64,000 nt of DNA from a virus (lineage: Duplodnaviria; Heunggongvirae; Uroviricota; Caudoviricetes). Of this stretch, positions 3,754 through 48,114 are shown in pieces; within the stretch, counting starts at the first letter, position 1; every line of letters starts with the position of its first letter. The stretch lies in IMG/VR virus record IMGVR_UViG_3300025299_000102; one strand, 5' to 3'. Made by a program: the position numbers and the translations under genes. The notes under the pieces were generated by a model. The model had not been told where the DNA came from. It ran no database searches and worked only from the letters and a program-made list of their open reading frames with translations.

Positions 3754-4040
3754 TGCCTTTGTTTTTCGTATTGGTGCTAGCGTCCCTTGGCATTTTTTGG
3801 GGAGGCTTCGCGGCCGCCACATTGTGGGGCTGGTTCATGGTTCCATTAGGGCTGCCCGCGATTTCATACTGGCATGCAGCCGGCCTCAGTATGCTGCTCG
3901 AGGTTCTAATGGGTTCCCGCGGTGTCTCGCGGAGCTCCGAGGCTGATGCTGAAAAAGCCGTCTCCTTTGCGCTGTACTGCGCCGTTCTTATCCCTGCCTT
4001 TGGCCTAGTTTTTGGTTTGCTGGTTCACCAGCAAATGTAA
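3753..4040 (+). CDS. small integral membrane protein
   Basis: Start overlaps previous stop (TAATG); 3 predicted TM helices. Confidence 0.45.
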   Translation: MPLFFVLVLASLGIFWGGFAAATLWGWFMVPLGLPAISYWHAAGLSMLLEVLMGSRGVSRSSEADAEKAVSFALYCAVLIPAFGLVFGLLVHQQM

Positions 4041-4074
4041 GCCGGTGCCTGGCTGCACATAACTATACCTTCGC

Positions 4075-5793
4075 ATGAACAAACAACTTACCATTTCCCT
4101 GGGGCAAATCAACCCAACCATTGGCGACTTCAAGGGCAACATCACTCTGATGCGCAATGCGGCCTTTGAGGCGCAAGCAGCTGAGGCTGACATGGTGGTG
4201 TTCCCAGAGCTATCCCTCACAGGCTATAGCCCAAGCGACCTGCTGGACGACAACATGTTCCAGCAACGCCTCGAACAGGCTCAGTCCGCCCTCTATGAAG
4301 CGTCCAAGGCTACTCCTGACGTTTATTGGGTAGTCGGATTGCCTATTCGTCGCTCCGGCCGTGGCGGCCGGCCGTATTACAACGCGCTGCAGGTGCTTCT
4401 CAATGGTGAAGTGGTCCACACCCAGTACAAGCAGCTCCTACCTACGTATGGCGTGTTCGATGAGCGGCGCCATTTCGAGCCAGGCCCTGACGTTGGCAAG
4501 GTCTTGCGAATCCGAGGGGTGACTATCGGATGGTTGGTCTGCGAAGACGCATGGAACGACACTGGCCTGGATTACCCAGTCAATCCGTTCCAGCGGCTGG
4601 CCGACGCATCGCCGGACTTGGTCATTTCGATAAACGCAAGTCCAAGTCACAAAGGCAAGCGTCAAGTTCGCCATTCGGTGATTTCCAAGGCCTGCGCGCG
4701 GCATAAACTTCCACTGGTTTATGTCGCCCAGGTCGGCGGCCATGACCAGCTGGTTTTCGATGGCGCATCGTTCGCGGTAAATGCTACAGGGGAAGTCGTA
4801 TTCGAGGCCAAGCGTTTTGACTCGGATGTCCCTACCATTCGACTGGATGTCGAGAGCCAGGCCTTTATGTCCGAAACTGGCGAGAAGCTGCCCCCAGTGG
4901 CTGCGGAGGGGTTGCCTGTGATGGAGTTCTACCGGCAGCAGCTTGTACTGGGAATCCGCGACTATGCGCGCCGCTGTGGCTTCACCAAAGCCCTGCTTGG
5001 CATGTCGGGTGGTATCGACTCCGCGCTGACCCTGATGCTGGCGGTCGAAGCGCTCGGAGCCCCGAACGTCGTGGCCGTGACGATGCCGTCCACCTACTCG
5101 AGCGAAGGTAGCGTGCTCGATTCCGAGTTGATGTGTCAGAACCTGGGAGTGCAGCTCATTGAGCTACCTATCCAGGAGATGGTCGACCAGTCATGCAAAT
5201 CGTTCGAAGCCAATGTCGGGGAGGCTCCGCGTGGGCTGGCTCTTGAGAACCTGCAGGCACGCATCCGCGGCATGATGCTGATGACTTACTCGAACCAGTA
5301 CGGCCAATTGTTGCTCACGACCGGGAATAAGAGTGAGCTTTCGGTAGGGTTCTGCACGCTCGGCGGCGACGTGCTGGGAGGCTTGTGCGTGCCCGGTGAC
5401 CTTTATAAAACGGAGGTAGTAGCGCTGTGCGAGCACATTAACGCTTCATACGGTCGAGAAGTAATTCCCGTGGCCATTATTACGAAGCCGCCGTCGGCCG
5501 AACTTTCACCAGGCCAGATGGACACCGACTCTTTGCCGCCATACCCAGTTCTGGATGAAATCCTGAAAGTGCACATTGAAGGCGACTTGCTCGATGTAGA
5601 AGAGCGCCGGCACGCCAATGCCGTGGTTCGCGGCCTAATGGCCGGACACAAAGGCCTCGACACAGTTGTCAAGGTGCGTCAGCTGATTGCACGCAGCGAG
5701 TACAAGCGCCGCCAGGCGCCACCCGTAATTCGAGTTCGTGCTCGCGCATTCGGTGTCGGGCGTCAAGTACCAATTACTGCTAAGCAATACTAA
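4075..5793 (+). CDS. nadE: glutamine-dependent NAD+ synthetase (CN-hydrolase domain + NAD synthase domain)
   Basis: N-terminal nitrilase-type domain (VVFPEL...; C in GWLVCED) and C-terminal PP-loop GMSGGIDSALTL, 572 aa typical of two-domain NadE. Confidence 0.85.
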   Translation: MNKQLTISLGQINPTIGDFKGNITLMRNAAFEAQAAEADMVVFPELSLTGYSPSDLLDDNMFQQRLEQAQSALYEASKATPDVYWVVGLPIRRSGRGGRPYYNALQVLLNGEVVHTQYKQLLPTYGVFDERRHFEPGPDVGKVLRIRGVTIGWLVCEDAWNDTGLDYPVNPFQRLADASPDLVISINASPSHKGKRQVRHSVISKACARHKLPLVYVAQVGGHDQLVFDGASFAVNATGEVVFEAKRFDSDVPTIRLDVESQAFMSETGEKLPPVAAEGLPVMEFYRQQLVLGIRDYARRCGFTKALLGMSGGIDSALTLMLAVEALGAPNVVAVTMPSTYSSEGSVLDSELMCQNLGVQLIELPIQEMVDQSCKSFEANVGEAPRGLALENLQARIRGMMLMTYSNQYGQLLLTTGNKSELSVGFCTLGGDVLGGLCVPGDLYKTEVVALCEHINASYGREVIPVAIITKPPSAELSPGQMDTDSLPPYPVLDEILKVHIEGDLLDVEERRHANAVVRGLMAGHKGLDTVVKVRQLIARSEYKRRQAPPVIRVRARAFGVGRQVPITAKQY

Positions 5794-8222: not shown

Positions 8223-9125
8223 ATGAAGAAAATAGCAAGTCATGGCGGTTCCTTTCACGCTGATGATGCGCTTGGCATTTCGATGCTGCGCGCGCTGTAT
8301 CCTGATGCGGAAGTTGTTCGCACACGCGACCCGGCCGTTTGGGCTACCTGTGACGCGCTAGTTGACGTCGGCGGTGAACATGACCCCGTGCGCAACCGGT
8401 TCGACCATCACCAGAAGGGCTTTGCGGAGCGTCGCGCAAACGGTATTCCGTACGCAGGCTCAGGCCTGGTCTGGGCTGCCTATGGCGCCCGCTATGTATT
8501 GACCATGGTCGATTGGGCGTCGTACGCCGAAGCTGAAATCATTGCGCGGATGGTCGATGAAAAGCTCATCCAACATGCTGATGCCGTCGACAGCGGTATC
8601 AACGTTCCAGGGTCAATGCACTTCAACCTGTCGGGCATCATCGACACCCTGAACAGCCGCTGGTATGAGCCAGAAGGCGATGATGACCTGCTTTTCGCAG
8701 AAGCAGTTGAACTTGCGGGCACAGTTCTTCGGAACCTGGTGCGTGCGGTCGCAGCTGAATATGCAGCAGCAGACCGAGTTCGTAATGCACAGCAGCTTGC
8801 CGGCGGCCGTATTATCGTGCTTGACGCAGCTCGCCTGCCATACGACCCTGTTGTGGTCAATGAGCTGCCGGACTGCCTCTTCGTGGTGTACCCTGAATCG
8901 ACAGGCAAACAGCACCAGGTCCGAGTTGTTCCGAAGGTTCTGGGTAAGTACGAAGCTCGCGCAGACCTTCCTGAAGCATGGGCCGGCCTTCGTGACGATG
9001 CACTGGCCGCGGCTACCGGTGTCAAGGACGCGGTCTTCTGCCATAACGGTCGCTTCATCTGTGGTGCCGGGTCGAAAGCCGGCGCAATTCGCATGGCTGA
9101 GCTTGCGCTTGAGGCTCTGGAGTAA
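8223..9125 (+). CDS. MYG1/UPF0160 family metal-dependent hydrolase (paralog 1)
   Basis: N-terminal HGGSFHADDALG and DHHQ motifs typical of MYG1/GAMM1 exonuclease family; AAGGAGGA RBS; TTGACG-17-TATACT promoter upstream. Confidence 0.65.
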   Translation: MKKIASHGGSFHADDALGISMLRALYPDAEVVRTRDPAVWATCDALVDVGGEHDPVRNRFDHHQKGFAERRANGIPYAGSGLVWAAYGARYVLTMVDWASYAEAEIIARMVDEKLIQHADAVDSGINVPGSMHFNLSGIIDTLNSRWYEPEGDDDLLFAEAVELAGTVLRNLVRAVAAEYAAADRVRNAQQLAGGRIIVLDAARLPYDPVVVNELPDCLFVVYPESTGKQHQVRVVPKVLGKYEARADLPEAWAGLRDDALAAATGVKDAVFCHNGRFICGAGSKAGAIRMAELALEALE

Positions 9126-39532: not shown

Positions 39533-40489
39533 ATGACGACAACTGTCAAACTAATCACGCATGACCGCGTGGTCCATGCGGACGATGCATTTGCTGTGGC
39601 AATCCTGCGGATTGCCTTTGGCGAAGTGGCTGTAATTCGTACCCGTAACCCTGAAATCCTCTATGTCGAGGCAGGGAAGCCGGATACATTCCTGCTCGAT
39701 GTAGGCGGGCGCTACGACCCTGAACAGCGCCTGTTCGACCATCACCAGCCGGAAGGTGCAGGTTACCGCAACATGCAGGTTTCGCCTCCAGAATGGCCGT
39801 ATGCAACTGCTGGCCTGGTCTGGAAGCATTACGGTGCCCAAGCCGTTCGTGCGCTGCATCCGTTTCTGAACGAAGAAGGTGTTCAAGAACTGGTGCAGCA
39901 CATCGACGACATCCTGTTGAAGTACATCGATGCGGTCGATTGTGGCGTACGCCTCAAGACCTCCGGACCATCCGTGTCCGCAATTATCGGTAGCTTCAAC
40001 TCGGCCTGGTTTGAGAAGGAGGAGGATGCGTTTCCACTGGCGAATTCTGTCGCCCAGGTGATTCTGTCCAACTTCATCAAGCGCCATGCCGGAAAGGTTC
40101 TGGCCCGTGACAAGGTGCGTCATGCGGAGTCTCGCATGGATGGTCGTGTACTTCTGCTGGAGGAATGCGTTCCTTGGGTTGAAGTTGTCATGGATGAAAT
40201 GCCCGACGTGATGTTTGTCGTGTATCCAGTTCGTGATGAATCGGAGACCATCCTCCAATGGCAGCTGCGTGCGGCGGCCAACAAGGATAAAACTCCACGT
40301 GTGATGCTCCCTCAAGCCTGGGGCGGGTTGGAGCGCAATGCTCTGGCACGTGTTTCTGGCGAACGAGATGCTGTGTTTTGTCACCGTTCGCGGCACCTCG
40401 CCGGAGCTATGTCTCAGGAAGGTGTCATGCACATGGCTGACATGGCAATTCGTGAGCACGTTCAGTCCGCGGAGCTGTTGGCCGCGTAG
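39533..40489 (+). CDS. MYG1/UPF0160 family metal-dependent hydrolase (paralog 2)
   Basis: THDRVVHADDAFA and DHHQ motifs; collinear with 8223..9125 product. Confidence 0.65.
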   Translation: MTTTVKLITHDRVVHADDAFAVAILRIAFGEVAVIRTRNPEILYVEAGKPDTFLLDVGGRYDPEQRLFDHHQPEGAGYRNMQVSPPEWPYATAGLVWKHYGAQAVRALHPFLNEEGVQELVQHIDDILLKYIDAVDCGVRLKTSGPSVSAIIGSFNSAWFEKEEDAFPLANSVAQVILSNFIKRHAGKVLARDKVRHAESRMDGRVLLLEECVPWVEVVMDEMPDVMFVVYPVRDESETILQWQLRAAANKDKTPRVMLPQAWGGLERNALARVSGERDAVFCHRSRHLAGAMSQEGVMHMADMAIREHVQSAELLAA

Positions 40490-40598
40490 TTGCTTTTCTG
40501 ACTTAATTCCCCCAGGTTTTTGCCTGGGGGTTTTTTCCTTTTCAAGGGAAAGAAATTTGGAGGGTTTTCCTATACTGAATACCCTCACTTTTGGAGTA

Positions 40599-41999
40599 AT
40601 GATGCTGTCTTCGGAACCCGTCCAAGTCAACGACGTAGCGAATGCCAACACCCTTAAGTACGTTCTCGACACAAACGTACTGCTGCATGACCCCGCCGCA
40701 CTGTTCCGCTTCCAGGAGCACGACATCTACCTCCCACTGGTCGTTCTTGAAGAACTTGACCGGCACAAGAAAGGCGTTGAGGACCTGGCGCGCAACGCAC
40801 GCCAGGTGACCCGTAGCCTGGACAACCTGCTGCAGCACGGCTCGATGGAACAAGGCTTTGCCCTCGCTGGCGCCTCGGAAGGTCGCGCCACCGGCAAACT
40901 GTACTTCCGGGAATCGACTGACCTCAACGACCAGGATGGCCCGGTCGGGCTGCAAGAGGGTAAAGCAGACAACCAGATTCTCGCCTGCGCGCGTAACCTC
41001 CTCCATGCACACGGCAATGCAGTTCTGGTCACCAAGGATATCAACCTGCGGGTCAAGGCGCTGGCGCTTAAAGTCCCCGCACAGGATTACCGCAGTGACC
41101 GTGTGCTTTCCGATGAAGACATCCTTCCAACGGGCTACATGGAAATTGATGCCTCCTTCTGGCTCGAACATGGCGTCACCGAGAAGAGCTACTTCCGCCG
41201 CAATAAAGTGCAGGCTGTGCGGGTGCCCACGCAACTCCCGGTCAATTCGTTCTTGGTCGAGCAAATCGAACGTAACGACCGCAAGAAAACCCGCCTGTGG
41301 CGTGTTGAAAGCTTCTCGTCCGAAGGTTCGGTACTTCTGGCTATCCCAAGCCAAGCGCCAAGCGATAATCCGCTGATTAGCGCACAAAATGAAGAACAGC
41401 AGATGGCGCTAAACCTGCTGCATGACACGAACGTGGACTTCGTTGCACTGCTAGGTAAGGCAGGCTCCGGGAAGACGCTGCTGGCGCTGGCCGCCGGCCT
41501 GGAGCAGGTGAGCGCTGGCCTTTTCGATAAAGTACTGATTACCCGCGCCACGGTTCCTCTGGGGGATGATATCGGCTTCTTGCCGGGCACCGAGGAAGAA
41601 AAGATGGCGCCATGGCTGAAAGGCACGCTGGAAGACCAGTATGTGGCTCTGCAGTTGGATGAAAAGAATCCTCTGCGTCAGAAGGTTGTCGTGGCCTCGA
41701 TGTCGTTCATGCGCGGCCGCAGCTTCCCTCGCACCTTCCTTATCCTCGATGAAGGCCAAAATCTGCGGCCAGAGCAGATGCGTGCACTGCTGACCCGTGC
41801 GGGCGAAGGCACCAAAATCGTGGTGACCGGCAACCTTGCCCAGATTGATACGCCGTATCTCGATGAAGGTACTTCGGGTCTTACCTGGGCGGCAAAGAAC
41901 CTGCATGACTGGCCGCACGCAGGACACATCATCCTGCCGCGCGGTGTCCGCAGCCGGCTGGCGACCTATGTCGAAGACATCGCAGCCAAGAAAACGTAA
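40599..41999 (+). CDS. phoH: PhoH2 (PIN domain + PhoH-like ATPase)
   Basis: N-terminal PIN (YVLDTNVLLHD); Walker A GKAGSGKT, VLITRATVPLGDDIGFLPGTEEEK, ILDEGQNL motifs of PhoH; GGAG RBS before ATGATG 40599. Confidence 0.8.
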   Translation: MMLSSEPVQVNDVANANTLKYVLDTNVLLHDPAALFRFQEHDIYLPLVVLEELDRHKKGVEDLARNARQVTRSLDNLLQHGSMEQGFALAGASEGRATGKLYFRESTDLNDQDGPVGLQEGKADNQILACARNLLHAHGNAVLVTKDINLRVKALALKVPAQDYRSDRVLSDEDILPTGYMEIDASFWLEHGVTEKSYFRRNKVQAVRVPTQLPVNSFLVEQIERNDRKKTRLWRVESFSSEGSVLLAIPSQAPSDNPLISAQNEEQQMALNLLHDTNVDFVALLGKAGSGKTLLALAAGLEQVSAGLFDKVLITRATVPLGDDIGFLPGTEEEKMAPWLKGTLEDQYVALQLDEKNPLRQKVVVASMSFMRGRSFPRTFLILDEGQNLRPEQMRALLTRAGEGTKIVVTGNLAQIDTPYLDEGTSGLTWAAKNLHDWPHAGHIILPRGVRSRLATYVEDIAAKKT

Positions 42000-42011
42000 C
42001 GTGTAACTGAA

Positions 42012-42584
42012 ATGGACCGACGCGAATTCCTTAAACAGGGTATGCGTCTGGGTGTAGCGACCGCGGGGAGCCTAGTGCTCCCCCCTGGTTTTACGGCTCA
42101 GGTGCTTGCTTCAGACCTCGGATTTGACCTGACCAAAGGTTCCCGAGTGCTCAACCTCACTCGTCCAGAGACTGGCGAGCGGCTGCACCTTGAGTACCTG
42201 CGCAATGGCAAATGGTTGGACAACTCCTACACCTACCTTTGCTGGCTGATGCGAGACATCCATGTAAACCAGCCGTTCGCCATGGATTACAACCTCATCG
42301 GCATCCTGGATTGGACGCAATGGTTCTTGGCACAGCATGGCTACACTAAGCCGCTCCAGATTTTGTCGGGCTACCGGTCCCCGCATACAAACCAGAACAC
42401 GGAAGGCGCGGCTAAAAACTCGCAGCACCTGTACGGCAAGGCCATTGACCTGCGAATTCCAGGCTTGTCGGCCGAATACCTCGGAAAACTGTTTCAATGG
42501 CTGTCACGAGGCGGCGTGGGAGTCTATCCTGGTAGCGAATTTGTCCACATCGACACCGGGCGAGTGCGCACTTGGCGCGGCTAA
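42012..42584 (+). CDS. Tat-secreted YcbK/DUF882 (peptidase M15-like) protein
   Basis: Twin-arginine signal RREFLK; SGYRSP..N and H..GKA.D zinc-peptidase-like motifs. Confidence 0.6.
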   Translation: MDRREFLKQGMRLGVATAGSLVLPPGFTAQVLASDLGFDLTKGSRVLNLTRPETGERLHLEYLRNGKWLDNSYTYLCWLMRDIHVNQPFAMDYNLIGILDWTQWFLAQHGYTKPLQILSGYRSPHTNQNTEGAAKNSQHLYGKAIDLRIPGLSAEYLGKLFQWLSRGGVGVYPGSEFVHIDTGRVRTWRG

Positions 42585-42624
42585 CCATTAAAAAAAAACA
42601 CCCACTGTTAAGTGGGTGGTTGAG

Positions 42625-43125
42625 TTACAGATAGCCAACTGCAGTAGGCGGGAGGCCCAGGCGTTGTGCAACATGAATAGCATGCTGTCCTGTCGGCATG
42701 GTGCCGCGCTCCCAGTTTTGCAGCGTAGTGATGGGTATGCCCCAAGCTGCCGCAAATTCCCTCAAATTCAGCCCCAGTTGCATTCTCTTTGCGATAATCA
42801 GCGTCGCAATATCAATAACCGGAGAGGGCGCCTGCTTAGTCAAACGCAGCGCGCGCTGAATGCGGAGAGTTTGAACTGCGTCTGTCGGATAGCTAAGCAA
42901 GTTAAGTCCCAGTAGTCGCGCTACGCGGACCAGCTTCAGTCCTTTCGGTATGCGCAATTCCGTCTCCCAACCGGCCAAATCGCTTCCGGTAATCCCGGTC
43001 ATCAACTCGACCAAATCAGCCCGCGTCCAACCATTTGCACTGCGGAGACTGCTCAAGCCTTGTGCGATGTCTCGCTTAAGCTTTGCATCCGATTTCTGCG
43101 GTGCAGTTTGCACGTGTTGTTCCAT
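42625..43125 (-). CDS. XRE-type helix-turn-helix regulator
   Basis: C-terminal LREFAAAWGIPITTLQNWERG HTH. Confidence 0.5.
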   Translation of the reverse strand: MEQHVQTAPQKSDAKLKRDIAQGLSSLRSANGWTRADLVELMTGITGSDLAGWETELRIPKGLKLVRVARLLGLNLLSYPTDAVQTLRIQRALRLTKQAPSPVIDIATLIIAKRMQLGLNLREFAAAWGIPITTLQNWERGTMPTGQHAIHVAQRLGLPPTAVGYL

Positions 43126-43129
43126 AATA

Positions 43130-44520
43130 TCCTCAAGTCAGATTCAAACCAGTTAGGTGTTTTTCCACTTCAAGGTATAGTTCCAGGAACGTAAAAACCC
43201 CGGTTGACCCGGGGTTTGAGGTTAGCCGCGGCGAATTTCGCCGGCATATTCTTGACGTCCGCCCAGCCCTAAAGGGCAGGGATTCCTGCTGCCAGGCCCG
43301 CACGTCCGCGGGCGAGGATGTTCTTGGCGGCATTGACATCGCGGTCGTGTTCCGCGTTGCAAGCACAGCACTGCCATCCTCTTATTCCAAGACCTGCGAC
43401 ACCTTTCGGCCCCGTGCGTGAACCGCAGCACGAACAAGTCTGGGTGGAAAACGCTTCATTGACTTCCTCGAACCATACGCCGGCGTCAGCGCACTTGTAC
43501 TGCAGCATGGTTCGGAATGCACGCCAGCCGGCATCGAGCACGGACTTCGCCATGCCGGTTTTTGCCAGGGCGGCCGCATTCACGTTGCCTACGAAGATAG
43601 CACCATACTCGCGTGCGAGCGTGGTACTGAATTTGTGCAAGGCGTCCTTGCGCCTGTTTGCTATTTTTGCATGCAGGGCTTTGACGCGTTGTTTCTTATT
43701 CGCCCGCTGAGCCATCGCCAACGCCGGCTCCAGGTCCCGATAGAACCGGTTTGCCTCGAGTGTCTCGCCAGTGCTGAGCGCAGCGAAGTCTTTCAGGCCC
43801 AGGTCGATACCGACTTCCCGGGTGGTGGTACTGCGCGCTGGCTTGGAGAACTTGACCGTAACGTTCAGGTACCAACGGCCACGGCTATCCTCGCTGAACG
43901 AGCCAGGTCCCAGTTCGAATTGGCTTAGGCTGTAGCTGTCCCACAGCGAAAACGGTTGACCACAATACCAGAGCTGGCCCTGTCGGTATCGCAAGGCTGA
44001 TGCCTTAAACGGTACCCAACCTAATGACCTGCGTGCGCCACCTGATTTGCGCCAGGCCAACCGCCGTTTATTAAATTGTCGCCGCCGAGTGACCAGTTCC
44101 TTGCTAATTGCCTGTACCGTTTGCGAATGGAGTGATAGACCTACTTTTGTCGCACCTGACGTGTAGCGGTCCAACTCAATGTTTGAGCAGAATCGTCCCT
44201 CGCGTTCTAACACTTTTACAGCTAGCTCGTTACAGAAGTTCCACACGAAGTTAACTTCCCGAGCCTGTGCGCGCAAGAACGCACTGTGCTTGTCTTTCAG
44301 TCTAAGGCGCAAGGTTCGTATTGTCGACGAAGAACTACTGGTCATATGTACAGTATATTCGATGCCCGCCGTATCAGCAAGTCACTGGATGCGCCCAACA
44401 TCCCCGGCCTTTAGGCCGGAGCCTTCGAATACCTCTTTGAGCCTGCCTGCGACTAACGCATCCTTCAGTTCACCGCACCGGACATAGCCCAGGCTTGGAG
44501 TTATTGCTCATAGGTATAAG
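43130..44520 (-). mobile_element. IS200/IS605-family insertion element carrying only tnpB (IS1341-like)
   Basis: TnpB ORF flanked by subterminal hairpins (AAACCCCGGttgaCCCGGGGTTT 43196-43218; CCCCGGCCtttaGGCCGGAG ~44395-44415; GGCCGtttaGCGGCC ~44523); boundaries approximate. Confidence 0.55.
43269..44345 (-). CDS. tnpB: TnpB (OrfB) RNA-guided endonuclease-type transposase accessory protein
   Basis: 358 aa; RuvC-like residues and C-terminal zinc finger CSCCGS...CCACNAEHDRDVNAAKNI typical of IS605 OrfB. Confidence 0.8.
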   Translation of the reverse strand: MTSSSSSTIRTLRLRLKDKHSAFLRAQAREVNFVWNFCNELAVKVLEREGRFCSNIELDRYTSGATKVGLSLHSQTVQAISKELVTRRRQFNKRRLAWRKSGGARRSLGWVPFKASALRYRQGQLWYCGQPFSLWDSYSLSQFELGPGSFSEDSRGRWYLNVTVKFSKPARSTTTREVGIDLGLKDFAALSTGETLEANRFYRDLEPALAMAQRANKKQRVKALHAKIANRRKDALHKFSTTLAREYGAIFVGNVNAAALAKTGMAKSVLDAGWRAFRTMLQYKCADAGVWFEEVNEAFSTQTCSCCGSRTGPKGVAGLGIRGWQCCACNAEHDRDVNAAKNILARGRAGLAAGIPAL

Positions 44521-44580
44521 CGGCCGTTTAGCGGCCTCCGCAAATACGCTATACGCATGGACTTTTTGACGTGACCGACC

Positions 44581-45093
44581 ATGATTGATTTCCTTGCCAC
44601 CTTGTTAGCCGACCTGCCGCCCGGCGCCGTCGCCATGTACCTTGGCCTGGCCATTTTTACTGTGCTGCTCCTGCGCTGTACTGCGCGGCCGTCCGTGTTT
44701 GCAGTTATCGCGTTGCCAGGTACGGCTATGCACGAGGCCTCACACCTAGTTGTGGGGAAACTTCTCGGTGCGCAGCCTGTTTCCATGTCCCTCTGGCCGA
44801 AAGACTTGGGGGGAGGGCGGTGGCAGTTGGGCGCGGTAGGCTTCACAAACCTGACCTGGTGGAATGCGCCGTGGACGGCAATGGCACCAATGCTTTTGGC
44901 CCCATTGTCACTTTGCCTTGCACTTATCTGGGCATACCCAGCTTTCGAGTCTGGTGCCAGCGTGCACGGCGCCTTCGCGCTGTACGTGTGCGCCAGCATC
45001 CTGCAGGCATCCTGGCCAAGCTCAACGGACTTCAAAGAGGCACTACCAGGGCTGGTCATCCTTGGCCTGCTCGGTGCCTGGGCGCTTCAATGA
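44581..45093 (+). CDS. membrane protein with HExxH motif (putative membrane zinc metalloprotease)
   Basis: MHEASHLVVG within TM-rich protein. Confidence 0.4.
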   Translation: MIDFLATLLADLPPGAVAMYLGLAIFTVLLLRCTARPSVFAVIALPGTAMHEASHLVVGKLLGAQPVSMSLWPKDLGGGRWQLGAVGFTNLTWWNAPWTAMAPMLLAPLSLCLALIWAYPAFESGASVHGAFALYVCASILQASWPSSTDFKEALPGLVILGLLGAWALQ

Positions 45094-45152
45094 CGTTCCT
45101 ATACTAATGAACCCATATCGGGCCGCCCGGTGGTGGCCTGGAGAATTCGTCC

Positions 45153-45548
45153 ATGAACCTTATCGACTACACACATCCTGACCGTGTTCCGGCGTTGTAC
45201 CTGCCGGACAACCGGCGCTCGCCGAGTTTCTACATTCGCCTGGACGAGCTGCCGCCTGGTCATCGCTTCTACTCGATTCACTGGGCCCTATTCCGCTATC
45301 CAGAATGGCTGGACGGGGGTTCTGCCTGGGTCCACTCCAAAGCAATTTATGAGGACCTGCAGCGCGTAGCGGCCGAAAAGGGCGTCGATGTGACTCAATT
45401 GCGACCGGTCGTCGGAAGCGATGACCCGGGCTATGACGAAGCGCTTGCCCAGGCCCTGCGCACCTTTGACCTCCGCCCAATGGTGGCCGAGGTCGTCCCT
45501 CGCAAGCTGACGATGCCGTCGGCAGCTGCTGTAACCGCTGGAGAGTAA
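45153..45548 (+). CDS. hypothetical protein (131 aa)
   Basis: ORF. Confidence 0.45.
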   Translation: MNLIDYTHPDRVPALYLPDNRRSPSFYIRLDELPPGHRFYSIHWALFRYPEWLDGGSAWVHSKAIYEDLQRVAAEKGVDVTQLRPVVGSDDPGYDEALAQALRTFDLRPMVAEVVPRKLTMPSAAAVTAGE

Positions 45549-45549
45549 T

Positions 45550-46899
45550 ATGGCAATTGCACAAACCTCGGCCGACGAACTTCTTGACCAGTTCAAGGCG
45601 TCACGTATGCGCGCTTCGTCCGACAAGGAAGCACAAAACCAAGAAGCACGGCTGCGCTTGCGTGATTCAGTCGTTCAGCTGCGTGAGCCAAACTCGCATC
45701 CGTCTTCGCCTGCCAGCACGTCTCAGCCAACATTCAAGATTGGCGATGCAAAGGGCTTCCCCTTTGTTCCTGAACGTGGGGAAGTTACGCCTGGGAGCGG
45801 AAACATGTCACCCAAAGCTTCCGAGGCGTTCTTTTCCCACATGCAGGACGCCGCATCCCGGTCGGATGCAAATTCGCGCGATGCCAGTGTTGGCAAGGCC
45901 GCAAAAGCAATTGCGCACGACTGGGCCGAGAAGCATGGCCTCACGGGTCACCACGGAAAAGAAGGAATGCTCGCTCACGCGCTCCACGAAGCTCGCGCCC
46001 AGGCTGCGTTTGTCTCGCGCGAAATCGGACAAAAGCTCGGTTTGAACCCGCTCGAGTCTACGCTTATCGGCCACTCCCTGGAGCGCGCGCTGGAAAAGGA
46101 AGGCTTCAAAGTCTTCGCCAACCACGCCATCGATAAAGGTGCCGAATTCTTCAAGGCCACGGCTTCGTCGGTGGCCCATGCCTCCGGTATGCGTCACGCA
46201 CTCGAAGAAAATCTGAGCAAGTCCCTTAACTGGATGGCAACCCATGGCGTCACCAAAGATGCGCTGAAAGAGGCCCTGGGCAAGCACGCCGGCAAACTTG
46301 CGGTTGTCGCAGAGCTGTCGCAGCATCCCGAAGTCATGCAGCGCGTGGCCTACACTATGTCCAAGTCCGACAAGGTTCTGGACGGGGTACTGATGCTGGC
46401 CAAGGATGATGAGTTCCGCAAGGGGATTGGTTCCCTTACCCTTGCCGCCGGCGAAACCGTCGCCAGCGTCAACAAGGGCGTCGGGTCCGTGGCCATCCTG
46501 GCCGGTTCGGCGCTGAAAGGGGATTCTACCGAAGATACGGCCCGTCATGCATTCCGAGCAGCTTTGACGGTGCTGGGCGGCGCGGCAGGCGGCCTGGCCG
46601 GCGGTGGCGTGGCTAGCTTGGCAACCGGTACCGCCGGCGCCATGGCAGGTAGCTGGGCGGCAGACAAGATTCTTGACCTCTATGACAAGCACATGGGGAA
46701 AGGTCCGCACGTTCAAGAGCGAACCGTCAACAAAGATGAAGTCGTCGCTGGCGCAAAGGTTATCGCTGACCGGGTCTCACACCGAATGGCAGAGGAGGGT
46801 GGACATGCCGCCAAGAGCGCGTTGTCGCCTGCCCTGGCCGAACGTGGCCGAGAAATGGAACGCGAGTACAGCCTGGGTAAGAGCGCGGGCCACAGCTAA
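45550..46899 (+). CDS. hypothetical protein with Gly-rich hydrophobic C-terminal segment
   Basis: 449 aa; GGAAGGLAGGGVASLATGTAGAMAG segment. Confidence 0.5.
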   Translation: MAIAQTSADELLDQFKASRMRASSDKEAQNQEARLRLRDSVVQLREPNSHPSSPASTSQPTFKIGDAKGFPFVPERGEVTPGSGNMSPKASEAFFSHMQDAASRSDANSRDASVGKAAKAIAHDWAEKHGLTGHHGKEGMLAHALHEARAQAAFVSREIGQKLGLNPLESTLIGHSLERALEKEGFKVFANHAIDKGAEFFKATASSVAHASGMRHALEENLSKSLNWMATHGVTKDALKEALGKHAGKLAVVAELSQHPEVMQRVAYTMSKSDKVLDGVLMLAKDDEFRKGIGSLTLAAGETVASVNKGVGSVAILAGSALKGDSTEDTARHAFRAALTVLGGAAGGLAGGGVASLATGTAGAMAGSWAADKILDLYDKHMGKGPHVQERTVNKDEVVAGAKVIADRVSHRMAEEGGHAAKSALSPALAERGREMEREYSLGKSAGHS

Positions 46900-46913
46900 T
46901 ATGGCTCTACAAG

Positions 46914-46945
46914 AAAAGCCCCTCGCAAGGGGCTTTTCGTTTTTA
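46914..46945 (+). terminator. intrinsic terminator
   Basis: AAAAGCCCCTCGCAAGGGGCTTTTCGTTTTT. Confidence 0.65.
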
Positions 46946-47065
46946 AGGTAATAGAAATACCTCAGCCAATACTTGCTGTTATTGCCGTTTCATGCGATAC
47001 TAGTCGAGTTAAAACCTGAATTTGTTATCGTGAAAACAACCAGTCATCCCCATGAAGTCGGCGCA

Positions 47066-47722
47066 TCACCGCACGCCGTAGGTACGCAGGAAGCTCAAGT
47101 CGAGCGTCCAGGCGCGCTTCGACAGCTCAATTTGGCGCTTCTCAACCTTCTCCAGCTCGGTAGTCAGCACCTTGGCGTCCCAATCATTCAGCCACTGCAG
47201 ACGCTCGTAAACCTGGTCCAGCCGGCCAATTCGATTGGCATAGCCCAGGTGCTTAGCTTTATGGCAGGTCGGGCATAGGCAAAGCAGCCCGCGAAGCGCC
47301 TGAACTCCGGTCTTTTCATCAAACTTCCATGCCTCGTGTGCTTCGACATGAGGTTCGCCGCGCGAGCCGCACGCGACGCAGGTGTTGCCGGCCGCCTGGT
47401 AGCAGAACTTACGCAAGCGGTCCCATTCCGTTTCTGAAAAGAGGGAGCGCAGGTTGGCCTCCCAGGTCGTAGTGGGAAGCATATCTGGCAGCAGGACCGG
47501 CGCCGGCGGGTTCCCGCGGTACTGCCATTTACGAGGCAACCACTCTTCGAAGGGCTCTAGGTAGGCATCGGAAGGTACATGGTACCCACGCTTTTCGGTG
47601 TACAGCCCGCCGGCGCGCAGAAAGCGCTGGCTATCCCAATACGGAACGCAGCAGGGGATAAATTCTTCTCCGCTCGGCGGAACAGTTAGGGTGGTATGGC
47701 GTGAGTTTAGAGCGTTTCGCAT
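47066..47722 (-). CDS. hypothetical zinc-finger protein
   Basis: CVACGS...H...H...CLCPTCH (possible HNH-like fold). Confidence 0.4.
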   Translation of the reverse strand: MRNALNSRHTTLTVPPSGEEFIPCCVPYWDSQRFLRAGGLYTEKRGYHVPSDAYLEPFEEWLPRKWQYRGNPPAPVLLPDMLPTTTWEANLRSLFSETEWDRLRKFCYQAAGNTCVACGSRGEPHVEAHEAWKFDEKTGVQALRGLLCLCPTCHKAKHLGYANRIGRLDQVYERLQWLNDWDAKVLTTELEKVEKRQIELSKRAWTLDLSFLRTYGVR

Positions 47723-48114
47723 AGCTGGTTCCGAAAAAAGAACCCTGGCAAAGCCAGGATTCAGGAGTTAGCGGATAACGATGAGGCATTTCGTTTTGCT
47801 GGGCAAATAGCGGCAGGAAACGTTGACGTCGCCCGCACGAGTGCTGGAGGCCTTCGGATGCTGGCAGAAGCCCATCCCCGGACATTGGCCTCGGGTCTCT
47901 TTCCAGTTTTGACAATTTCCGCATGTGTCAGCGGTTTCGGTTTGATTAGGCACGGTATTTCCTTTCATATCTTTTTGATGTCCTGTGACCCTTTGTATAG
48001 CTCAAAAGAAGCAGTGTGCAATTGATGGATTTAGCACTATACGTTCACGTAGGCACATATACCGAGCGGTGGTTATCCGCCCTCGATTCTAAGTTTATTT
48101 ACGCATAGGAAAAA

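Follow-up and report, generated by a model that had tools for sequence, protein, structure and literature searches.

Evidence for a non-autonomous, tnpB-only IS200/IS605-family element with a predicted omega-RNA scaffold overlapping the tnpB 3' end

A 64,000-nucleotide (nt) stretch of DNA from the virus record IMGVR_UViG_3300025299_000102 (IMG/VR; Caudoviricetes), called the window below, carries a tnpB gene between positions 43130 and 44520. A sequence-only reading had described it as a recent accessory insertion, with the right end and the omega-RNA in the DNA downstream of the gene. The locus raises the questions of where the element ends, which RNA would guide its nuclease and whether this copy can still move. 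We compared it with related loci, and concluded that it is very probably a non-autonomous, tnpB-only (IS1341-like) IS200/IS605 element of about 1.19 kb, running from about 44436 to 43252 on the minus strand. Hairpins lie subterminally at both ends on one strand, without terminal inverted repeats, and are conserved across loci. The earlier reading was sound in describing a tnpB-only IS200/IS605 element that has an omega-RNA and, at either end, a subterminal hairpin, but not in where it put the omega-RNA and the right end. All features of the element given below are on the minus strand.

The open reading frame at 43269–44345 encodes 358 amino acids (aa) and was full-length relative to 120 homologues. 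The protein matched the Pfam families OrfB_IS605 (PF01385) and Cas12f1-like_TNB (PF07282), and the NCBIfam model guided_TnpB ('RNA-guided endonuclease TnpB family') covered residues 11–346 with 226.6 bits (cutoff, 100). Homologues were abundant, with 7977 of 8000 scored candidates at E ≤ 1e-20. The CxxC...CxxC zinc finger (43359–43436) was formed by C304, C307, C326 and C329, which were invariant or nearly so among the 120 homologues. The open reading frame, the profile matches and the homologues together bore out the sequence-only identification of a 358-aa TnpB with this zinc finger.

The TnpB was aligned with structures of ISDra2 TnpB (8EXA, 8H1J). In the D-E-D catalytic triad, the RuvC-I residue Asp181 (43803–43805) corresponded to D191 and the RuvC-III residue Asp336 (43338–43340) to D361; the position of the canonical RuvC-II glutamate, Glu278, was occupied by Gly253 (43587–43589). 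An alternative glutamate, Glu297 (43455–43457), was found 44 residues downstream of Gly253. G253 and E297 were both present in 120/120 homologues, and D181, G253, E297 and D336 were each kept in 118–120 of the 120. Previous work has described such proteins. In the largest rearranged clade, RIIr-5, the RuvC-II Glu is changed to Gly, an alternative Glu compensates for it, and activity is predicted (PMC10691335). The 'TnpB2' proteins, for example the archaeal TvTnpB with the transposon-adjacent motif (TAM) NTGAC, have a rearranged catalytic site and were published as active (PMC10530073). These two papers define a rearranged RuvC-II by Gly (or Pro) in place of the Glu and a conserved alternative Glu some 45 residues further on; the window TnpB has Gly at RuvC-II and Glu 44 residues on. 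By these residues it belongs to the known rearranged class (TnpB2/RIIr), and Glu297 is presumed, by analogy with that class, to be the catalytic substitute beside Asp181 and Asp336.

The closest relative was a paralogue, L084, which is 87% identical and lies on a 571,992-bp contig. Between the two genes the ratio of nonsynonymous to synonymous substitution rates (dN/dS) was 0.12, with a dS of 0.69. To judge from these substitutions, tnpB is under purifying selection.

The right end was located by comparison with the paralogue, then by an alignment of 28 3' regions and then by a scan of all loci. Nucleotide homology between the window and L084 ran from about 44425 to 43250 and then stopped. About 75 loci ended in ...GGAGGAYGTCAA (...GTCAA), with unrelated flanks beyond. 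Among them were at least 18 copies from one Sphaerotilus metagenome-assembled genome (MAG), whose right ends were essentially identical and whose flanks differed. With about 120 related loci compared, the right end of the window copy was placed at 43252 (...GGACGTCAA), 17 nt past the tnpB stop codon. The terminal TCAA (43252–43255) marks both the transposon boundary and the boundary between scaffold and guide. Just inside it lies the right-end subterminal hairpin, CCCTGCCC-TTTA-GGGCTGGG, which together with the preceding GAAT spans 43262–43285 and showed compensatory changes across loci. The hairpin itself occupies 43262–43281, GAAT lies 5' of it at 43282–43285, and the tnpB stop codon TAG (43269–43271) spans its loop and 3' arm. 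Most relatives have a perfect stem of 8–9 bp here, whereas the stem of the window copy is interrupted by a T-T mismatch and its closing position is unpaired; a covariance model flagged both.

RNAalifold analysis of 24 non-redundant loci gave four helices upstream of this terminus. The first is long-range, GAGGATG (43375–43381) pairing with CATCCTC (43314–43320); it is followed by the hairpins GCCCGC-GGACGT-GCGGGC and CTG-GCAG-CAG, and then by the right-end hairpin. When 31 pairs were tested, 93.5% of the cells were paired, as against 35–55% with slid partners; cells with a change on both sides numbered 110, as against 12–37 in the slid controls, and none of 500 shuffles matched the observed values. 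GAGGATG/CATCCTC was replaced by GGCGATG/CATCGCC or GAGAATG/CATTCTC in other loci, although these bases are coding sequence. Compensatory base changes thus backed the scaffold from 43381 to 43252. RNAalifold also proposed pairs upstream of 43381, but these were invariant and hence uninformative.

The sequence-only reading had proposed a covariance search for the omega-RNA. Our model (R1) of the 142-nt region had a single match in the window, at 43252–43393 with 151 bits, the window copy being part of the training alignment. It also matched the tnpB 3' end at 36 independent viral loci, as well as that of four relatives outside the training alignment (L085 and L001–L003), and had no match in the three tnpB-less backbone relatives searched (L087–L089). 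An Rfam scan of 42000–46000 at E ≤ 1 returned zero matches. The coding sequence carried a corresponding constraint: against L084, dS was 0.18 over residues 298–342, the last 45 aligned codons, versus 0.82 upstream, and synonymous change at the 3' end of the frame was suppressed 3- to 4.5-fold. In a sliding comparison, synonymous-codon identity rose from about 0.5 to 0.72–0.88 from residue ~257 (nt ~43575) onward, so the scaffold, or an internal promoter, may extend upstream to about 43575. We assign 43252–43393 to the 3' part of the predicted omega-RNA scaffold on the strength of the RNAalifold structure, the covariation, the covariance model and the synonymous-site constraint. In this prediction the scaffold extends over the tnpB 3' end as far as the right end of the element, and the hairpins downstream are no part of it.

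The guide would start immediately beyond this terminus, at 43251, in DNA flanking the element, and would be 16–20 nt long. The predicted sequence, GAATATGCCGGCGAAATTCG (43232–43251), rests on its position beside the right-end boundary and on the published TnpB mechanism. The 20-mer had no match in the window except itself. Its 16-mers had 41 exact matches in IMG/VR, none longer than 19 nt and none following a TYAY(C) motif, and by a rough estimate for a collection of this size these are probably chance matches.

The sequence-only reading had placed the right end and omega-RNA within 43130–43268. Only the last 17 nt of that interval belong to the element; the ends of the ~75 loci, the covariation and the covariance model all make 43130–43251 flank. 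The perfect hairpin on which that reading relied does exist, as a 9-bp inverted repeat, AAACCCCGG/CCGGGGTTT, with arms at 43195–43203 and 43209–43217. The arms enclose a loop of 5 nt (plus strand, TTGAC) and not the 4-nt 'ttga' given, and the hairpin is not an element end, since it sits 35–57 nt beyond the boundary, upstream of the promoter region of the XRE gene. Read on the minus strand and with the following TT, it is AAACCCCGG-GTCAA-CCGGGGTTT at 43193–43217, identified as an inverted repeat and by single-sequence folding. The T-run, the absence of the hairpin from the paralogue L084 and, in L087, an intrinsic terminator at the corresponding position ahead of the XRE homologue led us to regard it as most likely a terminator between tnpB and the XRE gene, outside the element. 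A second small hairpin, CGGCGAA-T-TTCGCCG at 43229–43243, was likewise present as described, but with the right end at 43252 it too lies outside.

At the left end, a subterminal hairpin, CTCCGGCC-TAAA-GGCCGGGG (44402–44421), was conserved with L084, L169, L001 and many others, as was the sequence inside it. Relatives carry a target of the form T-N-A-N(+C), such as TCATC, TTATC, TTACC or TCACC, 15–18 nt 5' of this hairpin; the Sphaerotilus copies have TGAC+C, and their flanks diverge exactly there. Target bases 2 and 4 covaried with nucleotides 1 and 4 of the tetranucleotide just 5' of the hairpin, the pairing counts for the second target base being C:G 14, T:A 5 and T:G 1 (left ends of L004–L084, L127 and L169). 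This is the rule of IS608, by which a guide tetranucleotide pairs with the cleavage site. In the window the four nucleotides 5' of the hairpin are AAGG (44422–44425), which predicts TTAC as the target. The outer left end (44422–44441) consists of a 15-nt spacer, AGAGGTATTCGAAGG (44422–44436), and then reads CTCAA (44437–44441), so that TTAC(C) is absent at this place; no T[TC]A[TC]C occurs between the left-end hairpin and the next gene. In L169, the closest comparable relative (76% aa identity), 15 nt separate TTTACC from the hairpin. The window copy appears to have lost its outer left tip or to have diverged there, and its left boundary is uncertain and probably defective.

Two further sequences were noticed upstream of the left end. 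About 110 nt away, at 44520–44549, another hairpin region, GTATTTGCGGAGGCCGCTAAACGGCCG, was similar to part of the left end, GTATTCGAAGGCTCCGGCCTAAAGGCCG, of which it may be a partial duplicate, although the alignment was non-significant. The heptamer ACGTCAA (44566–44572), in which the right-end terminus also ends, directly adjoins the start of the 170-aa gene and may be a relic of another element or chance. Remnants of the right or left end in this region were rejected as candidates, because the local alignments were non-significant (equalled by 339/500 and 54/500 shuffles, respectively).

The tnpB ATG (44343–44345) lies at the centre of a palindrome, TACTGTACATATGACCAGTA (44336–44355), the top inverted repeat of the region. 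It scored 16/20 against TACTGTATATATATACAGTA, the E. coli-type LexA consensus, with CTG-N10-CAG intact. The box was unique in the window, where the next best site scored 12/20, and 0/200 shuffles reached 16. Boxes of 15–18/20 were found at the start codon in about 25–30 of 87 related loci, in several subfamilies, where 0.04 would be expected per 125 nt; the loci include L084, L169 (17/20), L001–L003, L010, L016, L018, L023, L028, L032, L037, L050, L062 and L075. A -10-like TATACT (44352–44357) ends 6 nt before the ATG, and a Shine-Dalgarno sequence is absent. These two features suggest that the tnpB mRNA may be leaderless and LexA-repressed. A full-text literature search found no description of LexA control of tnpB. 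Tentatively, and as a proposal that we think more likely to fail than to hold, tnpB and its omega-RNA could belong to the host SOS regulon in a beta/gamma-proteobacterial clade, with the nuclease produced solely in response to DNA damage. On this proposal the window copy would be an immobilised, damage-inducible RNA-guided nuclease kept on a giant extrachromosomal replicon, where it might act in homing or in competition between co-resident replicons. If LexA control is real, it would tie RNA-guided transposon maintenance to DNA damage.

We then considered whether this copy can move. A tblastn search with three TnpA proteins of related elements found no Y1 TnpA in the 64-kb window (best E ~1), in agreement with the sequence-only reading. 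Of about 85 loci, only L017, L049 and L077 encoded Y1_Tnp (PF01797, E 5e-42), upstream of tnpB and in divergent orientation; tblastn with those proteins gave one further, more distant match (35% identity) in L031. These neighbouring Y1_Tnp genes, the covariation of the target with the foot of the left-end hairpin and the multicopy relatives all favour membership of IS200/IS605. Because no TnpA was detectable in the window, we regard the window copy as non-autonomous. Transposition is evident at the family level, since a single Sphaerotilus MAG carries at least 18 copies. These copies (L030–L050) are near-identical, belong to a 56%-identical member of the family and each follow TGAC. Separately, the viral contig L105 carries two tnpB/omega-RNA units, at 3926–4090 and 5317–5457, about 1.4 kb apart, which suggests a tandem or nested insertion.

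The window itself holds a single copy. Protein-identical loci occurred on 14 contigs, 11 of them of 0.2–1 Mb, and all three that were retrieved share one context. The G+C content of the element equals that of its surroundings. Relatives of the flanking 170-aa and XRE proteins were not found in IMG/VR, and near and distant DNA searches of phage and plasmid records returned the tnpB gene only, with no backbone relatives. Homologues of the 170-aa protein led to syntenic replicons (L087–L089 and L170; 65–67% identity in the 170-aa gene). The sequence-only reading had proposed comparing related genomes that lack the insertion; among these syntenic relatives the interval held different, unrelated cargo, and no empty site was available to define the target. 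Given the shared context, the paralogue at a dS of 0.69, the matching G+C content, the different cargo and the missing target motif, the claim of a recent accessory insertion is unsupported. Because it lacks the target motif and, as it seems, the outer left tip, and because the window has no tnpA, this copy is most likely fixed and no longer mobile, with the nuclease and its RNA still kept by selection.

The strongest rival explanation is that the locus is a recently inserted, still mobile insertion sequence whose right end and omega-RNA lie in 43130–43268, including the perfect hairpin. The intact reading frame, the hairpins at both ends and the multicopy, clearly mobile relatives would all suit it. 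However, the boundary at 43252 is family-wide and the covariance-model match ends there, the perfect hairpin lies outside that boundary and is missing from the paralogue, and the left tip has no target motif. The single window copy, the one context of the three protein-identical loci, the lack of compositional contrast with the surroundings and the lack of a tnpA in the window point the same way. We consider this explanation improbable and, as regards the hairpin, already largely refuted.

A second explanation is exaptation, in which a nuclease-inactive TnpB would act as a TldR-like RNA-guided repressor, possibly together with the adjacent XRE regulator. It would account for the change of the canonical RuvC-II Glu to Gly, and for an apparently immobile copy beside a transcription factor. 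However, the Gly is invariant in a large family that includes multicopy mobile elements, always together with Glu297, Asp181 and Asp336, and the same configuration has been published as active (PMC10530073) or predicted to be so (PMC10691335). The guide is simply the right-end flank, with no other match in the window, and an XRE homologue occurs in L087 without tnpB. As the protein keeps D181, E297 and D336 and is full-length and untruncated against the 120 homologues, this reading was rejected as very unlikely. A miniature type V (Cas12f-like) effector of a CRISPR (clustered regularly interspaced short palindromic repeats) system, rather than a transposon gene, was rejected as scarcely credible: the PADLOC Cas12f and Cas12u models do match the C-terminal half, but the best matches are full-length TnpB models, the transposon ends are conserved, and neither a direct-repeat family nor a CRISPR array was found in 40000–48000 (±4 kb).

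Under the preferred reading of an immobilised, tnpB-only element, the 3' part of tnpB, together with 17 nt beyond its stop codon, would be transcribed into the omega-RNA scaffold. This would end at the TCAA of 43252–43255, and 16–20 nt of flank, from 43251 downward, would serve as the guide. As in published work, a Y1 TnpA supplied in trans would excise the element as single-stranded DNA via the two subterminal hairpins. TnpB with the omega-RNA would then cut the emptied donor site, recognised by the target motif and the guide match, and recombination would restore the element. In this copy the right end, scaffold, reading frame and left-end hairpin are intact. Expression would probably start from a left-end promoter whose -10 element and start site lie under the LexA-type SOS box, and the downstream perfect hairpin would most likely stop read-through ahead of the XRE gene.

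Several points weigh against parts of this reading. The case for nuclease activity and for the geometry of Glu297 is made from alignment and from published studies of other proteins in the class, and the 5' end of the omega-RNA, the guide length and expression are predictions from the DNA. The left boundary is not fixable, as the data searched held no empty site or second identical copy; immobility rests on one missing motif at one locus, and the negative result for tnpA covers the 64-kb window and not the other ~508 kb of the replicon. The SOS-box reading is based on likeness to a consensus, and the box is absent from most distant and viral relatives. The terminator scanner, by its own criteria, did not call the hairpin at 43195–43217.

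Downstream of the element, the gene at 42625–43125 (minus strand) encodes an XRE-type protein with two helix-turn-helix domains (HTH_3 matches), as the sequence-only reading had it. Upstream, the gene at 44581–45093 (plus strand) encodes 170 aa with a HEASH motif. Its description as a membrane protease was not confirmed: the protein had no Pfam or NCBIfam match, and beyond the HEASH motif there is only a 63%-identical homologue that goes by 'Peptidase M50' in one source. The backbone is syntenic except for a variable island, which lies between the M15 peptidase gene and this gene for a 170-aa HExxH membrane protein (about 42585–44580). The island holds XRE and tnpB in the window; in relatives (L087 4174–6000, L088 1273–6000, L089 3031–6000 and L170 5347–7000) it holds XRE and two small genes, PAAR-domain proteins, or an HD-domain protein and small genes.

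The window also encodes an NAD synthase, a topoisomerase, an RIIA-like protein, RNA and DNA ligases, an aminoacyl-tRNA synthetase, a Ro-like protein and many proteins of no recognised kind; no tRNAs are encoded in it. Two MYG1-type exonuclease genes appear to lie within 31 kb of each other, one at 8223–9125 (plus strand) with a Pfam match and one at 39533–40489 (plus strand) predicted only from synteny with L087 and L170. No phage or plasmid record was similar to the window. The backbone had been called phage-like, and the RIIA-like protein, the RNA ligase and PHROG matches agree with that; however, structural genes were not seen, and the F-type conjugation genes TraU and TrbC are present on a related contig of 593 kb with the label Burkholderia ubonensis (L169 8561–11179). 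The ~572-kb replicon may be a huge phage or a megaplasmid, and a megaplasmid is possible.

TnpB-only IS200/IS605 elements are among the commonest prokaryotic genes and the rearranged-Glu class has already been described, so the locus itself matters little. Its by-products may be of more use. They comprise coordinates of the predicted omega-RNA scaffold, guide start and TAM (TTAC) for a compact, 358-aa rearranged TnpB; the structure of an omega-RNA family absent from Rfam, with a covariance model for it; covariation that confirms, across the family, the IS608 rule of pairing between guide and cleavage site; and a lead that tnpB in part of the clade may be under LexA control.

Among known systems, IS608 of Helicobacter pylori, the reference IS200/IS605 element, likewise has subterminal hairpins at both ends, on the same strand, without terminal inverted repeats. 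The two also share the layout of the right end, where GAAT precedes the hairpin on its 5' side and the terminal TCAA lies 10 nt beyond it on the 3' side. The left-end target of the family (TTAC in L169 and in phage Raharianne) lies 15–18 nt 5' of the hairpin and covaries with the four nucleotides 5' of it (AAAG), in keeping with the guide and cleavage-site rule of IS608. Unlike IS608, the window locus has no tnpA, lacks the target motif and encodes a TnpB with a rearranged RuvC-II. ISDra2 TnpB (PDB 8EXA, 8BF8 and 8H1J) aligns with the C-terminal half, containing RuvC and the zinc finger, at E 1e-23, and there too the scaffold overlaps the tnpB 3' end, stops at the right end and takes its guide from the flank. 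It differs in having Glu278 in place of Gly253; the protein described here is 50 aa shorter, and its scaffold has no Rfam match, with family-specific sequence and helices.

The closest likeness in the catalytic site is to TnpB2/RIIr, with which the window TnpB shares the Gly at RuvC-II and the conserved alternative Glu 44 residues on. The TAM published for TvTnpB, NTGAC (PMC10530073), equals the TGAC target of the Sphaerotilus subfamily. As in IS1341-type elements, tnpB is the sole gene between the ends and TnpA would be needed in trans, but this copy is apparently without its left tip and target motif. It resembles TldR in being an immobile TnpB homologue on a mobile replicon with regulatory genes adjacent, and differs from TldR in that its rearranged catalytic residues are kept, the protein is full-length and the predicted guide is the ordinary right-end flank.

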